DNA of 10,514 nucleotides from a virus (Duplodnaviria; Heunggongvirae; Uroviricota; Caudoviricetes): IMG/VR virus record IMGVR_UViG_2645727991_000017; one strand, written 5' to 3'. The translations under genes were made by a program, and so were the position numbers. The notes below the pieces were generated by a model. It did not search any database and was not told where the DNA came from. It saw only the letters and a program-made list of their open reading frames with translations. Below, one piece after another: positions 2,254 to 10,038 of the stretch. Each line of letters begins with the position of its first letter. Position 1 is the first letter of the stretch.

Positions 2254-3237
2254 TTGGCGATGGCATGTTTGTGTCTGGCAAACATATCCTGGGCTACTGT
2301 TTGTGCAAATAGTACTGGCGTAGCAGAAGATGAACACTATGATCTCTCAAATATCTTTAATAGCACCAATAACCAGCCAGGGCAGATTGTTGTTTTACCG
2401 GAAAAATCCGGCTGGGTAGGTGTCTCAGCAATTTGTCCACCCGGTACGCTGGTGAATTATACATACCGTAGTTATGTCACCAACTTTATTGTTCAGGAAA
2501 CTATCGATAATTATAAATATATGCAATTACATGATTATCTATTAGGTGCGATGAGTCTGGTTGATAGTGTGATGGATATTCAGTTCCCCCCGCAAAATTA
2601 TATTCGGATGGGAACAGATCCTAACGTTTCGCAAAACCTTCCATTCGGGGTGATGGATTCTCGTTTAATATTTCGTTTAAAGGTTATTCGTCCCTTTATT
2701 AACATGGTGGAGATCCCCAGACAGGTGATGTTTACCGTGTATGTGACATCAACGCCTTACGATCCGTTGGTTACACCTGTTTATACCATTAGTTTTGGTG
2801 GCCGGGTTAAAGTGCCGCAAAACTGCGAATTAAATGCCGGGCAGATTGTTGAATTTGATTTTGGTGATATCGGCGCATCGTTATTTAGTGCGGCAGGGCC
2901 GGGGAATCGACCAGCTGGCGTCATGCCGCAAACCAAGAGCATTGCGGTCAAATGTACGAATGTTGCTGCGCAGGCTTATTTAACAATGCGTCTGGAAGCC
3001 AGTGCCGTTTCTGGTCAGGCGATGGTGTCGGACAATCAGGATTTAGGTTTTATTGTCGCCGATCAGAACGATACGCCGATTACGCCTAACGATCTCAATA
3101 GCGTTATTCCTTTCCGTCTGGATGCAGCTGCGGCAGCCAATGTCACACTTCGCGCCTGGCCTATCAGTATTACCGGTCAAAAACCGACCGAGGGGCCGTT
3201 TAGCGCGCTGGGGTATTTACGCGTCGATTATCAATGA
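2254..3237 (+). CDS. sfmH: FimH-like fimbrial adhesin / fimbrial-like protein
   Basis: ORF in frame from 2107 but that start lies inside the usher; plausible starts are TTG 2254 or ATG 2260 just after the usher stop (2216-2218). Hydrophobic signal-like N-terminus (LLLAMACLCLANISWA), C-terminus ...LRVDYQ resembles the recalled FimH C-terminus ...FVYQ. Position between usher and minor subunit. Start codon uncertain by a few codons. Confidence 0.7.
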   Translation: MAMACLCLANISWATVCANSTGVAEDEHYDLSNIFNSTNNQPGQIVVLPEKSGWVGVSAICPPGTLVNYTYRSYVTNFIVQETIDNYKYMQLHDYLLGAMSLVDSVMDIQFPPQNYIRMGTDPNVSQNLPFGVMDSRLIFRLKVIRPFINMVEIPRQVMFTVYVTSTPYDPLVTPVYTISFGGRVKVPQNCELNAGQIVEFDFGDIGASLFSAAGPGNRPAGVMPQTKSIAVKCTNVAAQAYLTMRLEASAVSGQAMVSDNQDLGFIVADQNDTPITPNDLNSVIPFRLDAAAAANVTLRAWPISITGQKPTEGPFSALGYLRVDYQ

Positions 3238-3765: not shown

Positions 3766-4398
3766 TTATATTAATTCATATAATTTGGCGTAGTCGATAA
3801 GCTCTACAATTGAATGCAAACCTAGCTTGCCATAAATATTAGATTTATGCGCACTAACTGTTTTATTGCTAAGTAATAACTTATCGGCAATTTCTTTATT
3901 AGATAATCCGCTAACCAGATAACGTAATATGGTCACTTCACGATTAGATAGCACAGTGATCGTTGAACTATTCGTACTACATTTATTGCTTTTTATATAG
4001 TTAAGCGTTTCGCTAGGAAAAAACGTGTATCCGGAGAGGATCATCTGAACGGCATGAAAAATATCATTCTGATCATTGCATTTACTGACAAAACCGTTAG
4101 CACCAGCTTGTATCGCTCTGCCAGCATAAAAGCATTCTGATTTCGATGATAAAAATAACACTTTCACTGTGCTCTGGATTTGTTTGATCCTTTTCAGGAA
4201 GGTAAAACCGTCTGTTCCGGGCAAGTCTATATCCATAATGATTAAATCAACAGGACGGGTTCGGAGATAATCGATGGTTATGCGGTAATCATCCGTTTTC
4301 AGGACAATCTGCAATTCACTGTTTTTTTGCAACAGAACTTCAATAGACATTCTGATGATAGGATGAGTATCCATAATGATCACCGACGTTGGTTTCAT
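3766..4398 (-). CDS. fimZ: LuxR/NarL-family response regulator FimZ (210 aa)
   Basis: Translation from the ATG at 4398 (MKPTSVIIMDTHPIIRMSIEVLLQ...) has a receiver domain (IIMDIDLPGTDGF) and a C-terminal LuxR HTH (LSNREVTILRYLVSGLSNKEIADKLLLSNKTVSAHKSNIYGKLG); matches FimZ as recalled. The track ORF start at 4461 is an upstream extension. Confidence 0.9.
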   Translation of the reverse strand: MKPTSVIIMDTHPIIRMSIEVLLQKNSELQIVLKTDDYRITIDYLRTRPVDLIIMDIDLPGTDGFTFLKRIKQIQSTVKVLFLSSKSECFYAGRAIQAGANGFVSKCNDQNDIFHAVQMILSGYTFFPSETLNYIKSNKCSTNSSTITVLSNREVTILRYLVSGLSNKEIADKLLLSNKTVSAHKSNIYGKLGLHSIVELIDYAKLYELI

Positions 4399-4581
4399 AG
4401 TTACCAGTCTCATAGGAGCGGACAATTTTCCGTTAGGGCGGTAAATTGTACTTTGATACATGAAAATACGGGTTTTCTTGATTCAGACGCGCAGCGGTGT
4501 GCGTTTGTTTGCCACTATAGCGAAATAAATCAGAAAATCAGACGCGGTCGTTCACTTGTTCAGCAACCAGATCAAAAGCCA

Positions 4582-4640: not shown

Positions 4641-4717
4641 GCGCCCTTAGCTCAGTTGGATAGAGCAACGACCTTCTAAGTCGTGGGCCGCAGGTTCGAA
4701 TCCTGCAGGGCGCGCCA
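4641..4717 (+). tRNA. argU: tRNA-Arg (anticodon UCU)
   Basis: 77-nt cloverleaf: acceptor stem GCGCCCU/AGGGCGC, D-arm GCUCAGUUGGAUAGAGC, anticodon stem ACGAC/GUCGU with loop CU-UCU-AA, T-arm GCAGGUUCGAAUCCUGC, 3' GCCA. Matches E. coli argU as recalled. Confidence 0.95.
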
Positions 4718-4732
4718 TTACAATTCAATCAG

Positions 4733-5896
4733 TTACGCCTTCTTTATATCCTCCATAATTCCAGAGTGGGACATATTTGGGACATTATCACCAAAAATGT
4801 CGTCTATTTTCCTCGCATGCTCTGTCAAATGATTAGGCGCAAGGTGAGCATACCTACGAACCATTTCTATGGACTCCCATCCGCCCATTTCCTGAAGCAC
4901 TGATAATGGGACGCCTGACTGAATCAGCCAGCTTGCCCAGGTGTGTCTGAGGTCATGGAAACGGAAATCTTCAATTCCTGCACGACGACAAGCTGATAGC
5001 CATGATGTCTTGCTGTCGATGCGCATCTTCCTGACCGCAGGCGTTGATGTTCCATCTGCTCGCTTAGCCGCCTTGGTATGTACAAACACCCATTTGTGAT
5101 GCTTGCCTATTTGATCACGCAACACTTTACAGGCGGTATCGTTCAGCGCCACACCAATGGCGCGGTTTGATTTGCTCTCTTCTGGATTCACCCAGGCAAC
5201 TCGTCGCTGCATGTCGATTTGTTGCCATTCCAGATTTATGATGTTCGACTTTCTCAGACCAGTTGCCAGCGCAAACTTGACGACAGATTTCAGTGGTTCG
5301 GGGCACTCATCAATAAGGCGTTTTGCTTCCTCCTTTTCCAGCCATCTGACTCGCTTGTTTCTGACCGCTGGTATCTTGATGACAGGCGCTTTTTCCAGCC
5401 ACTTCCAGTCGCGTTCTGCAGCACGGAGAATAGCCTTTATCATGGCAAGATGCTTTGCCTTTGTCTGAGTTGATACTGGCTTTGGTTCATAAACAGGCAG
5501 TTCTTTACCTTTCCTGATGGCGGCCTGAACTTTCTGTTTCCATATTTCTTTCGTCTTTCTGTTATGCATTCTGCTTACAGCAGAGTAAATCTTTGCCTCC
5601 GAGATATCTTTAAGCCTTATACCCTCAAAATGTTCAAGCCAGAACTCAATCCGGCTTTTATCTGAATCGAGAGATTTTTTATCAGCTTTTTCCTCAAGCC
5701 ATCTTAGGCAGGCCTCTTCAAAAGTGACATCAGGTAAATCCCCTAGCTTTTCTACTCGCCAGAGTTCTGCTTTTCGCTTGTCGTGCAACTCCTGAGCTTG
5801 CCGCTTGTCCTTTGTGCCAAGAGATTCCTTAATTCGTTTCCCGCCCGGGAGCGAATACGAGGCATACCATATTTCATTTCTGCGGAAGAGTGACAT
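4733..5896 (-). CDS. intD: Tyrosine site-specific integrase (DLP12 IntD-like, 387 aa)
   Basis: Translation [55 protein letters not shown]... with C-terminal catalytic region ...[42 protein letters not shown] (R...HxxR...Y); matches DLP12 IntD as recalled; SD AGAGGAAAG upstream of the ATG at 5896. Confidence 0.95.
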
Positions 5897-6123
5897 TTTC
5901 TTTCCTCTGTTATGCCATCACCCGCGCTCACCTGGACAGTATGCAGCGGAGACTGAAGCGCCGCAATGCAGGCTTGCCGTGTTGTGAGGTAAGGAGATTT
6001 TGGCTTGGTTGGATCTTTACGTGTTGCCTGTAGGCGGCCTGTTCGTATCCAGTTGGTGGCGGTTGGTCTGGATATCTTAAGAAACTGACAGGCCTCATCG
6101 AGTGTGAGGCTGTATGATTCCAT
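5752..6123 (-). CDS. xis: Excisionase-family DNA-binding protein (HTH), about 123 aa, with a long C-terminal extension overlapping int
   Basis: ATG at 6123 with SD AGAGGT 5 nt upstream; N-terminus [31 protein letters not shown] matches the excisionase/AlpA-type HTH pattern; directly upstream of int. The 3' 145 nt overlap the int start in another frame. Confidence 0.6.
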
Positions 6124-6373
6124 GGTTACCTCTGCTTTTTGAACGCATGTCACGTAACTTCTTAATGTGTTCTGCCGTTTCGATCTCTTCTGCTATCCGA
6201 TCTGCATCAGCTTTATTCACAGGTTCAAAGTCATGATTAAAGCGGAACATGCTGGCGATACATGTTCTGCCTTTTCGGATGTAGTGAACTTTGTTGTGGG
6301 TAGAACGCAGGATTTTGCAGGGAGTGCCGTGGTGGTCGACGTACCAGGTGTTAGGGTAAATCACTCTGAACAT
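6095..6373 (-). CDS. Hypothetical phage protein (92 aa)
   Basis: ORF with ATG at 6373; its start overlaps the end of the upstream ASCH gene and its end overlaps the xis start (coupled arrangement). No family recognised from sequence. Confidence 0.45.
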   Translation of the reverse strand: MFRVIYPNTWYVDHHGTPCKILRSTHNKVHYIRKGRTCIASMFRFNHDFEPVNKADADRIAEEIETAEHIKKLRDMRSKSRGNHGIIQPHTR

Positions 6374-6683
6374 TCTTGACCTTGTGTTGTGCGGATTGAT
6401 ATTCAGTGCTGATATTCACCTTTATAGCGAACACCTTTACCGGTTTATCGCCAAAGTGTGGATGTGTGATTGTCTTCACTTCATATCCGTCATACGGAAC
6501 ATCAATTCTGCGACTGGAATCGTCGCGCTTCGGATATCCCTTTGTGATAATCAGGCGGTCATACTCCCGGAACATAATTCGCTTATTCCAATAGTCATTA
6601 CACAGGCGATACTCCTCCGTTTTCTCTCCGCGAATCATGGCATCGAAAAATTCACTTTTAACAGGAAGTTGCAGGTTAGCCAT
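6351..6683 (-). CDS. ASCH-domain (PUA-like) protein, about 110 aa
   Basis: N-terminus MANLQLPVKSEFFDAMIRGEKTEEYRL carries the GxKxxExR signature typical of ASCH domains; ATG at 6683 with SD GGGGGA about 7 nt upstream (the track ORF starts one codon earlier at a GTG); start overlaps the stop of the TraR-like gene (TGATG). Confidence 0.55.
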   Translation of the reverse strand: MANLQLPVKSEFFDAMIRGEKTEEYRLCNDYWNKRIMFREYDRLIITKGYPKRDDSSRRIDVPYDGYEVKTITHPHFGDKPVKVFAIKVNISTEYQSAQHKVKNVQSDLP

Positions 6684-6904
6684 CACTTAATCCCCCTTTG
6701 TTTGCGGATAAGCTCCAGATCTTGCTGGCAACTGGCGCAAGTTCGACAACCCTGAACGGCTAGGCGTCTTCGTTCATCTATCGGATCACCACACTCACAA
6801 CAATGAGTGGCAGATACAGCCAGGTGGTTCAGGCGGCGCATTTTTATTGCTGTGTTGCGCTGTAATTCTTCTATTTCTGATGCTGAATCAATGATGTCTG
6901 CCAT
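6683..6904 (-). CDS. TraR/DksA-family C4 zinc-finger protein (73 aa)
   Basis: Translation contains CECGDPIDERRRLAVQGCRTCASC (CxxC-17-CxxC), the size and motif of phage and conjugative TraR/DksA-like proteins. Confidence 0.7.
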   Translation of the reverse strand: MADIIDSASEIEELQRNTAIKMRRLNHLAVSATHCCECGDPIDERRRLAVQGCRTCASCQQDLELIRKQRGIK

Positions 6905-6956
6905 CTTCCATTAATCCCTGAATTGTTGGTTAATACGCTTGAGGGTGAATGCGAAC

Positions 6957-6983
6957 AATAAAAAAGGAGCCTGTAGCTCCCTG
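6957..6983 (-). terminator. Rho-independent terminator (minus-strand sense) immediately downstream of the DGQHR gene
   Basis: Minus-strand sequence GGAGC-TACAG-GCTCC (extendable to AGGGAGC/GCTCCTT) followed by TTTTTTATT; + strand 6966-6980 stem-loop with A6 run at 6960-6965. Confidence 0.55.
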
Positions 6984-7057
6984 AGGATTTTGCTTTTCAT
7001 GTTCACCGTTCCTTAAAGGCGCCGTACAGCATGCTGATATGAGACAATGTTGATTCA

Positions 7058-8122
7058 TTAAGTTGATTCCAGACTTCCTTTGGTAAATGCTTGTATCAGT
7101 CTGTTTGCTGCTGCTTTCTGCGCTGCCACATTGGCAATAACAGATAGTTTTTCCTGGCTGGCTTTCGTGCAGATCCCCGCCCAGTTATCCATCAGAAAAA
7201 AATCCTCTCTTTCTGCAGAGCTGGTAGTTGCACATAGTTTTTCGATCATAGAAGTTATTTCTGCGATGGAATGATTAACCATCATCTGTTGAACCGCAAA
7301 ACCGAAAGCGTTAATCATTACTCCATGGAACTGAATATAATCGCGCTTGTACGTAGCGTGGTGTACACCATGTCGGATTGAGTCAATCTGAGTTAGTGTA
7401 ATCCATGCCTCCCAGACAGATTCTATATATCCCATTTCAAGTTGTTGATTGCCGTTCCTGGCGAACTTTGACGTTGCATCAGTGAGTGCCTTGAAACTCA
7501 CCCACATATTACTTTTTAATGGCACTACGTTGTGTTCAAAATCGGTTATATCGGCAAATACAGTATGTTGGGTCAGGAAGGATATCATTCCCTGAGCAAT
7601 ATCATCCCGGCCGTTATACGCCATATTGATGGTCGCTGATGGCTTAGAAACGTTGTTATTTATGTCCGAAAAGAACTGCTGCCGGGTTTTTAGCGGCAGA
7701 TTCATTGTAAGCATCATGGGAACCATGAGCGTTGATGGGGAACTTCGGCAAAATATCTCAATGCCAGCTGCACGATGTTGACCATCAAAAAGTTTTATTT
7801 CGGCGTCGAGGGGAATTCTGGCTATACCAACATTTGTGTTGCCAAACGGTACAAATTCTATATTCGAATCACAGTTACCTACGAGAGGGGGAATGATAAA
7901 AGGCTCATTTCTTGAGTCTGCGTTAGTGAGATAATTTAAAAATTTTCGTACTCGATTTGGATTAATTTCTCGCTGAGAGCGTTCCAGTGTATGGCCGTAA
8001 TTATCTGAAGCGAGGAAACGAGCCAGCGATCTTCCTGGTATGGTAAGGAAGAGTGTAACAGTACCACCCTGTACACCTTGCGATGCCGGAAATTCGAATG
8101 AATGATTACCAACCTGACTCAT
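7058..8122 (-). CDS. DGQHR-domain protein, DndB-like (ParB/Srx superfamily), 354 aa; solitary, no dnd/dpd partners in the window
   Basis: Exact DGQHR motif in context AEIKLFDGQHRAAGIEIF; upstream segment ERSQREINPNRVRKFLNYL resembles the QRxL..RV..I..Y segment of DndB/DGQHR proteins as recalled; N-terminal FEFPASQGVQGG; perfect SD AGGAGG 4 nt before the ATG at 8122; terminator downstream. Confidence 0.65.
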   Translation of the reverse strand: MSQVGNHSFEFPASQGVQGGTVTLFLTIPGRSLARFLASDNYGHTLERSQREINPNRVRKFLNYLTNADSRNEPFIIPPLVGNCDSNIEFVPFGNTNVGIARIPLDAEIKLFDGQHRAAGIEIFCRSSPSTLMVPMMLTMNLPLKTRQQFFSDINNNVSKPSATINMAYNGRDDIAQGMISFLTQHTVFADITDFEHNVVPLKSNMWVSFKALTDATSKFARNGNQQLEMGYIESVWEAWITLTQIDSIRHGVHHATYKRDYIQFHGVMINAFGFAVQQMMVNHSIAEITSMIEKLCATTSSAEREDFFLMDNWAGICTKASQEKLSVIANVAAQKAAANRLIQAFTKGSLEST

Positions 8123-8273
8123 ATATCCTCCTGTTTATTATTTATCTTCTCAGCCAGCCGCTGTGCTTTCAGTGGATTTCTGATAACAGAAAGGCCGGGA
8201 AATACCCAGCCTCGCTTTGTAATGGAGTAGACGAAAGTGATCGCGCCTACCCGGATATTATCGTGAGGATGCG

Positions 8274-8954
8274 TCATCGCCATTGCTCCCCAAATACAAA
8301 ACCAATTTCAGCCAGTGCCTCGTCCATTTTTTCGATGAACTCCGGCACCATCTCGTCAAAACTCGCCATGTACTTTTCATTCCGCTCAATCACGACATAA
8401 TGCAGGCCTTCACGCTTCATGCGCGGGTCATAGTTGGCAAAGTACCAGGCATCTTTTCGCGTCACCCACATGCTGTACTGCACCTGGGCCATGTAAGCCG
8501 ATTTTATTGCCTCGAAACCACCGAGCCGGAATTTCATGAAATCCCGGGAGGTAAACGGGCATTTCAGTTCAAGGCCGTTGCCGTCACTGCATAAACCATC
8601 GGGAGAGCAGGCGGTGCGCATACTTTCGTCGCGATAGATGATCGGGGATTCAGTAATATTCACGCCGGAAGTGAATTCAAACAGGGTTCTGGCGTCGTTC
8701 TCGTACTGTTTTCCCCAGGCCAGCGCCTTAGCATTAACTTCCGGAGCCACACCGGTGCAAACCTCAGCCAGCAGGGTGTGGAAGTAGGACATTTTCATGT
8801 CAGGCCACTTCTTTCCTGAGCGGGGCTTTGCTATCACGTTGTGAACTTCTGAAGCGGTGATGACGCCGAGCCGTAATTTGTGCCATGCATCATCCCCCTG
8901 TTCGACAGCTCTCACGTCGATCCCGGTACGCTGCAGGATAATGTCCGGTATCAT
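8274..8954 (-). CDS. exo: Lambda-type 5'-3' exonuclease (Red alpha), 226 aa
   Basis: Translation [65 protein letters not shown]...GEQWR is near-identical to lambda Exo as recalled; start overlaps the bet stop (ATGA). Confidence 0.95.
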
Positions 8955-9736
8955 GCTGCCACCTTCTGCTCAGTGGCTTTCTGTTTCAGGAATCCAAGAG
9001 CTTTCACTGCTTCGGCCTGTGTCAGTTCTGACGATGCGCGAATGTCGCGGCGAAATATCTGGGAACAGAGCGGCAATAAGTCGTCATCCCATGTTTTATC
9101 CAGGGCGATCAGCAGAGTGTTAATCTCCTGCATGGTTTCATCGTTAACCGGAGTGATGTCGCGTTCTGGCTGACGTTCTGCAGTGTATGCAGTATTTTCG
9201 ACAATGCGCTCGGCTTCATCCTTGTCATAGATACCAGCAAATCCGAAGGCCAGACGGGCACACTGAATCATGGCTTTATGCCGTAACATCCGTTTGGGAT
9301 GCGACTGCCACGGCCCCGTGATTTCTCTGCCTTCGCGGGTTTTGAATGGTTCGCGGCGGCATTCATCCATCCATTCGGTAACGCAGATCGGATGATTACG
9401 GTCCTTGCGGTAAATCCGGCATGTACAGGATTCATTGTCCTGCTCAAAGTCCATGCCATCAAACTGCTGGTTTTCATTGATGATGCGGGACCAGCCATCA
9501 ACGCCCACCACCGGAACAATGCCGTTCTGCTTATCAGGGAAGGCGTAAATTTCTTTCGTCCACGGATTAAGGCCGTACTGGTTGGCGACGATCAACAATG
9601 CGATGAACTGCGCATCGCTGGCATCACCTTTAAATGCCGTCTGGCGAAGAGTGGTGATCAGTTCCTGTGGGTCGACAGAATCCATGCCGACACGTTCAGC
9701 CAGCTTCCCTGCCAGCGTTGCGAGTGCTGTACTCAT
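8951..9736 (-). CDS. bet: Lambda-type single-strand annealing protein Bet (Red beta), 261 aa
   Basis: Translation [66 protein letters not shown]... matches lambda Bet as recalled; same length. Confidence 0.95.
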
Positions 9737-9741
9737 CCGTT

Positions 9742-10038
9742 TTATACCTCTGAATCAATATCAACCTGGTGGCGGGCAATAGTTTCAACCATGTACCGGA
9801 TGTGTTCTGCCATGCGTTCCTGAAACTCAACATCGTCATCAAACGCACGGGTAATGGCTTTTTTGCTGGCCCCGCAGCGTTGCAAATGATCGATGCATAG
9901 CGATTCAAACAGGTGCTGGGGCAGGCCTTTTTCCATGTCGTCTGCCAGTTCTGCCTCTTTCTCTTCACGGGCGATCTGCTGGTAGTGACACGCCCAGCTC
10001 TGAGCCTCAAGACGATCCTGAATGTAATAAGCGTTCAT
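9742..10038 (-). CDS. gam: Gam (RecBCD inhibitor), 98-aa short form
   Basis: Translation [98 protein letters not shown] is near-identical to lambda GamS as recalled; an in-frame stop 18 codons upstream (10093-10095) and no upstream ATG exclude a GamL-type extension. Confidence 0.9.

Follow-up and report, generated by a model that had tools for sequence, protein, structure and literature searches.

The ASCH superfamily, a nucleic-acid-binding fold of the PUA-like clan, consists of families with sequence identities below 15%, which are recognised by their structure and by a GxKxxxxR motif (PMC5615036). In its full form, this octapeptide is defined as G-x-K-x-x-[E/T/S]-x-R (PMC5615036; bioRxiv 10.64898/2026.02.27.708502). 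Described proteins of the GKER type (PF04266) are TthASCH of Thermus thermophilus (2DP9), PH0355 (2z0t) and ZmASCH (5guq), while DUF3850 (PF12961) is represented by a protein of Enterococcus faecalis (3iuw). YqfB of Escherichia coli (9kyf/1te7), which belongs to the GKTR subgroup, is an N4-acetylcytidine amidohydrolase. In a preprint that included no phage protein, 19 ASCH proteins of the GKTR and GKER types lowered the ac4C content of tRNA with Lys and Glu/Thr of the octapeptide being essential, and free ac4C was not hydrolysed by ZmASCH and TRIP4 (bioRxiv 10.64898/2026.02.27.708502). The genomic compartment of interest here is the exo-xis region of lambdoid phages, the genes of which are transcribed early from pL and influence the lysis-lysogeny decision (PMC8614690); ASCH or PUA does not occur in this review of the region.

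In this study, we analysed a stretch of DNA of 10,514 nucleotides (IMG/VR record IMGVR_UViG_2645727991_000017), in the following called the window. It contains E. coli chromosome with fimbrial genes, a gene for a FimZ-type regulator (3766-4461) and tRNA-Arg(UCU) (4641-4717), followed from position 4733 onwards by the left arm of a lambdoid prophage that is integrated at argU and has all its genes on the minus strand. In close relatives, the same flanks are annotated as sfmF, fimZ and tRNA-Arg, then intD. In the direction of transcription, the prophage genes are gam (9742-10038), bet (RecT; 8951-9736), exo (YqaJ; 8274-8954), a DUF1317 gene (8119-8283), a gene with a DGQHR domain (DndB-like, ParB fold; 7058-8122), a TraR/DksA-type C4 zinc-finger gene (73 aa; 6683-6904; PF01258 with 36 bits; PHROG 54), the ASCH-like gene (110 aa; 6351-6683; PHROG 625 with an E-value of 7.7e-51), a DUF4222 gene (6095-6373; PF13973 with an E-value of 8.9e-19; PHROG 285), an excisionase-like ORF (5752-6153; HTH_17; PHROG 2907 over the full 117-position profile) and the integrase gene (4733-5896). 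The excisionase-like ORF and the integrase gene (5′ end) have approximately 145 nt in common, and the counterpart of this ORF in the argU prophage EcPF15 is annotated as a truncated pseudogene.

The ASCH-like gene is located in the exo-xis accessory region of this lambdoid prophage. It shares with the lambda exo-xis genes the compartment between the recombination genes and xis as well as the direction, and it lies directly downstream of an Orf73/TraR-like gene. It is not among the five genes conserved in the exo-xis region but part of the variable set downstream; lambda itself has ea22/ea8.5 at this position. The TraR-like protein carries the N-terminal DxxDxA and the C4 arrangement given as hallmarks of lambda Orf73/TraR (PMC8614690) and scores 56 bits with TIGR02419, slightly under the cut-off of 59.7.

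The ORF at 6351-6683 is a real gene. Among 54 alleles from the best 80 IMG/VR loci, the median dN/dS was 0.105, indicating purifying selection, whereas shifted frames of the same alleles gave values of about 1-2. Furthermore, the gene calls on contigs include exactly this protein of 110 amino acids in 2,241 collection blocks. Two plus-strand ORFs opposite the gene (6384-6755, 123 aa; 6406-6594, 62 aa) are most likely shadows, because the substitution patterns favour the minus-strand frame. Translation starts with ATG at 6683 and ends with the TAA stop codon at 6353-6351; an in-frame GTG at 6686 is an alternative start that would result in 111 amino acids. A purine-rich AAGGGGG (6692-6698, minus strand), read from the sequence 8 nt upstream of the ATG, is the probable ribosome binding site. 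Since the ATG overlaps the TGA stop codon of the TraR-like gene by one base (TGATG), translational coupling of the two genes is suggested by the sequence. At the 3′ end, the last 23 nt (6351-6373) reach into the beginning of the DUF4222 gene. The ASCH-like gene overlaps its neighbours, and no promoter-like site that would belong to it alone was found on its strand. Three length forms of the protein were present in the best 80 loci, with 94 aa (62 loci), 108 aa (11) and 110 aa (7), and according to the alignment the C-terminal tail of 17 residues (residues 94-110; 6351-6401, minus strand) is particular to the allele of the window.

The octapeptide of the protein is GEKTEEYR (residues 19-26; 6606-6629, minus strand), in which G19, K21, E24 and R26 form the GKER signature and a putative ligand or catalytic pocket. 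G-x-K-x-x-E-x-R matched once in the six-frame translation of the window, compared with 0.11 matches expected from composition. In 129 relatives, the octapeptide is the most conserved feature, with K21 present in all 129 sequences, E24 in 128, R26 in 126 and G19 in 119. Beyond this motif, the family has invariant residues of its own, namely W32, R35, G49-Y50-P51, H74 and F77-G78. No counterparts of these residues are established in the ASCH enzymes that have been characterised, so the substrate could differ. The family, PHROG 625, comprised 1,435 clusters at 50% identity in an exhaustive profile search, and its PHROGs entry states that the function is unknown.

Profile searches gave a different picture for the window protein and for its relatives. 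The protein itself had no match to Pfam ASCH (PF04266) or DUF3850 (PF12961) even at E ≤ 10 and thereby fell short of the gathering thresholds of both families (21.2 bits for ASCH, 22.9 bits for DUF3850). Relatives and family consensus sequences reached 13-19 bits with these two models, which is below the cut-offs and covers the first 22-30 model positions only. The best DUF3850 score among the relatives was 18.9 bits against the gathering score of 22.9, and a single relative (P0177) exceeded a Pfam cut-off with 23.0 bits. In a set of 62 diverse relatives, 33 matched ASCH and nine matched DUF3850 at E ≤ 1, and no other family recurred; positions 1-26 of Pfam ASCH align to the octapeptide region of the relatives. 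Searches with NCBIfam and PADLOC gave no match to the ASCH-like protein. Sequence and family-profile searches against PDB chains returned spurious matches only (ACE2, beta-xylosidase, ribosomal proteins), and hhalign of the family profile against the single sequence of E. coli YqfB, which is a weak template, aligned the octapeptide region only, with a probability of 0.4%. In RefSeq, the protein is already named 'ASCH domain-containing protein'.

Ten relatives that are longer than the ASCH domain were scanned with Pfam, and nothing reliable was obtained. As only weak matches to RVT_1 (on P0196) and SH3_18 occurred, no function can be deduced from fusions. The extra parts in some relatives (P0196, P0166, P0177, P0226) consist of a reverse-transcriptase-like N-terminal region, which is the part with the weak RVT_1 match, and of Cys-rich C-terminal tails; these are candidate fusions.

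An AlphaFold2 model of the ASCH-like protein had a pLDDT of 83 with a shallow alignment of 25 close sequences, the C-terminal tail being modelled with low confidence (mean pLDDT of about 52-61 in the last two blocks of 10 residues). It predicts a six-stranded beta-barrel with flanking helices. Together with the octapeptide near the N-terminus, this predicted central barrel gives the protein the two features by which members of the ASCH superfamily are recognised. The top PDB matches of the model in Foldseek were 2z0t, 3iuw and 5gus with probabilities of 0.92-0.95, and the structural matches in BFVD include phage proteins named DUF3850 or ASCH. Another viral structural neighbour in BFVD, A0A8S5UN54 (168 aa, 26% identity), is named 'Restriction alleviation protein'. 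From the fold, the motif, the weak Pfam matches of the relatives and the RefSeq naming, we conclude that the protein is a divergent member of the ASCH superfamily of the GKER type that is missed by current Pfam models. The initial annotation had described an ORF at 6351-6683 with MIRGEKTEEYR near its N-terminus and had taken this as the ASCH GxKxxExR signature of an ASCH-domain (PUA-like) protein. The ORF with this peptide at residues 16-26 on the minus strand was found as described, and the signature proved to be unique in the window and conserved to 92-100% in the 129 relatives. Fold and motif bear out the assignment to ASCH; the Pfam ASCH/DUF3850 search that was to confirm it did not do so.

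Compared with the described GKER proteins, the predicted barrel, the GxKxxExR motif and the small single domain of about 90-110 amino acids are shared. The window protein differs from them in that it is undetected by the Pfam model, that sequence similarity is confined to the first approximately 25 residues, that it has invariant residues of its own and that its family is largely prophage-borne. From DUF3850, it is set apart by family matches that all lie below the DUF3850 gathering score and, in contrast to many phage DUF3850 proteins, by having no fusion to a ParB-CTPase domain (PMC12704722). Compared with YqfB, the window protein has Glu in place of the catalytic Thr, and while yqfB is a chromosomal housekeeping gene, the ASCH-like gene is phage cargo.

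This cargo is a cassette of one gene that prophages may have or lack. Of the 5,426 complete E. coli genomes, 1,486 carried the ASCH-like gene, at 1,851 places altogether and with 80-100% identity, and it was found in 332 sequenced phage records. Phages 21 and ev207 also carry it. In prophages of both the lambda-like and the P22-like kind, the family is located at the end of the early-left block that is nearest to xis. The cassette body of 304 bp (6375-6678, minus strand) became apparent by blastn comparison with the DGQHR-bearing EcPF15 argU prophage, which is 98.6-98.8% identical to the window on either side of the cassette, is annotated without ASCH and has a 42-bp spacer between the junctions instead. 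In EcPF15 (3083-3124), the first two codons of the ASCH-like gene (ATGGCC) are kept and followed by this unrelated spacer, giving a mini-ORF of 11 codons. Judged by its sequence, the spacer looks like the scar of a loss or replacement of the cassette at a precise junction.

The genes upstream of the ASCH-like gene differ between phages and encode TraR, DUF551, DUF4752 or dATP/dGTP pyrophosphohydrolase proteins. A conserved neighbour was sought across 38 species-level loci of the family (one genome per species), spanning Enterobacterales to Burkholderiales, Rhizobiales, Desulfobacterota and beyond, and no partner gene emerged; what recurred were integrases at six loci and a large putative cytosine-methyltransferase-like ORF at four. 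The latter is an ORF of approximately 660 amino acids within 5 kb (L135, L143, L144, L157), judged by eye to resemble cytosine-5 DNA methyltransferases. As there is no conserved partner and the neighbours vary, the ASCH-like protein probably acts alone, on host or phage nucleic acid.

The second gene to be considered is the DGQHR gene. Its product matched TIGR03187 with 188.8 bits, which is above the cut-off, as well as PF14072 and DndB of PADLOC. With the DndB equivalog TIGR03233, it scored 106.9 bits against a cut-off of 328, and none of dndA, C, D and E is present in the window or in related loci. Only the generic DGQHR domain model is passed, and the gene does not qualify as dndB of a Dnd phosphorothioation system. 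It was found at 286 places in 284 of the 5,426 complete E. coli genomes, and since all copies are at least 99% identical, a recent spread of the cassette is suggested. A terminator-like hairpin with a T-run (6964-6982, minus strand) lies 3′ of the gene on its own strand, which corresponds to a moron-like organisation.

The DGQHR gene occupies a variable cargo slot (6905-8118) between the TraR-like gene and the DUF1317 gene. Exactly the 110-aa ASCH allele of the window occurs very commonly at the argU site. In ten listed contexts of this allele, the slot is filled by a small ORF together with either DUF1382 or a Dam methyltransferase (PF05869), and DGQHR is present in none of the ten. One gene within the matched region of phage SfI carries the annotation 'queuine tRNA-ribosyltransferase'. 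Cargo of the DNA-modification type seems to go with this slot and not with the ASCH-like gene. In Salmonella phage SPN1S (L166, 4073-5658), there is a 4-nt overlap between the DGQHR gene and the gene for a DNA methyltransferase downstream of it, and in Klebsiella phage ST101-KPC2phi6.3 (L167, 3088-5077), a Spo0J/ParB-like gene is located two genes upstream of DGQHR. The DNA methyltransferase and the Spo0J/ParB-like protein are possibly the true partners of the DGQHR protein.

The initial annotation had placed a DndB-like gene about 400 bp upstream of the ASCH-like gene and had offered two readings, a functional theme of modified-DNA biology or coincidence. The position is right, the DGQHR stop codon being 375 bp upstream of the ASCH-like start; the TraR/DksA-type zinc-finger gene that lies between the two had gone unmentioned. 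The link was followed up by co-occurrence. With a synthetic query of the two joined genes, none of the 286 DGQHR places in the 5,426 complete E. coli genomes had ASCH and DGQHR in adjacency. At 1,816 DUF4222-bearing loci, ASCH stood beside the DUF4222 gene in 689 cases (38%), a frequency at which about 70-110 of the DGQHR loci would be expected to carry ASCH, compared with 0 seen. Both genes anywhere in the same genome were observed in 22 genomes, compared with 78 expected under independence (hypergeometric P of about 2e-17, uncorrected for shared ancestry). In IMG/VR, no ASCH-like gene was detected by tblastn or family HMM at the 41 loci with a DGQHR relative, apart from one remnant of 27 residues, and no DGQHR gene was present in the best 80 ASCH loci. 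Likewise, none of the 38 species-level loci of the ASCH family has a DGQHR relative within 5 kb, and in SPN1S and ST101-KPC2phi6.3, the two phages examined, ASCH is absent within 4 kb of the DGQHR homologues. Co-occurrence is below chance and adjacency is absent, so that the two genes do not form a module and the functional theme had to be given up in favour of coincidence. Based on these distribution data and the comparison with EcPF15, the ASCH-like and DGQHR genes are modules that occur independently of each other, and the window is a rare recombinant in which both are present. The modified-DNA theme suggested for the two is a coincidence that results from the mosaicism of phages.

These data bear on several alternative explanations. 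A functional pair of the two genes, in which a PUA-like reader would cooperate with an NTPase of the ParB fold on modified DNA, was an idea worth testing, because fusions of the ParB-CTPase fold with DUF3850 are enriched in prophages; in addition, ParB-ASCH fusions occur in archaea and DndB is ParB-like (PMC12704722). In the window, both genes have the same operon direction and lie within 400 bp. The pair is nevertheless contradicted by the distribution described above, including the ten contexts in which DUF1382 or Dam instead of DGQHR accompanies the same ASCH allele; we consider it extremely improbable. The ParB-DUF3850 fusions as support for the link were rejected for the window locus on the distribution data. 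Another explanation is that the protein is not an ASCH protein at all and that the octapeptide arose by chance or convergence on another small beta-barrel, either EVE/YTH-like or of an unrelated fold. It would fit with the lack of a Pfam, NCBIfam or PDB sequence match, with the restriction of similarity to ASCH sequences to about 25 N-terminal residues and with the structural search, in which EVE and YTH structures score almost equal to the weaker ASCH matches. We regard this explanation as very unlikely.

Within the ASCH superfamily, the protein could be a non-catalytic reader or binder of RNA or of modified DNA or RNA bases, serving as a regulator or anti-restriction factor. PUA-like domains (ASCH, EVE, YTH, SRA) are commonly modification sensors (PMC12191111; PMC10853773), the inactivity of TRIP4 and ZmASCH on free ac4C points in the same direction, and so do the name of the BFVD neighbour and the Cys-rich tails of several relatives. 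However, the octapeptide Lys and Glu, retained in 129 and 128 of the 129 relatives, respectively, are catalytic in the tested ASCH enzymes, which fits better with chemistry without proving it, and 'restriction alleviation' is the uncurated name of a metagenomic protein that Pfam did not confirm on comparable relatives. A pure reader or binder is, in our view, doubtful. A single-strand-specific ribonuclease like ZmASCH, acting on host or phage RNA in early infection, would agree with the presence of ZmASCH (5guq/5gus) among the top structural matches and with its character as a GKER-type, metal-dependent nuclease for single-stranded RNA (PMC5615036). We rate this activity as quite unlikely. Our best guess, at clearly less than even odds, is a hydrolase that is directed at cytidine in tRNA or RNA. 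Its most specific form, in which PHROG 625 is an eraser deployed by phages, i.e., a GKER-type ASCH hydrolase by which host tRNA would lose ac4C or a related N4-acyl mark, appears rather unlikely as it stands.

Overall, the gene is best explained, with a probability of about 70%, as a divergent stand-alone prophage cassette with an ASCH fold, which is independent of DGQHR and binds or hydrolyses a cytidine-type base of RNA, a substrate, catalysis and role that we infer. As judged from position and gene organisation, the ASCH-like protein would be produced early from the left operon of the phage. The pocket of the near-invariant Lys21, Glu24 and Arg26 may then bind a cytidine-type base in RNA, and the protein may hydrolyse an N4-acyl group, corresponding to an activity of the ac4C eraser type, or simply bind RNA. 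In the case of an eraser, the target in E. coli would be ac4C34 of elongator tRNA-Met. Either by hydrolysis or by binding, host translation could thereby be modulated early in phage development.

The ASCH-like gene is widespread and already annotated, and as matters stand it is of little importance in itself. The analysis documents a large ASCH-like family of prophages that is missed by Pfam models, and it assigns the DNA-modification-type cargo (DGQHR, Dam and the annotated queuine tRNA-ribosyltransferase) to the separate slot between DUF1317 and TraR. Retention by the family of the Lys/Glu/Arg octapeptide, which is catalytic in ac4C-removing ASCH enzymes, offers a biochemical hypothesis that can be tested cheaply. 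If the eraser reading is true, decoding or translation capacity would be altered during the lysis-lysogeny decision, and no enzyme of this type for the demodification of tRNA would have been described before as encoded by a virus, here in temperate coliphages.
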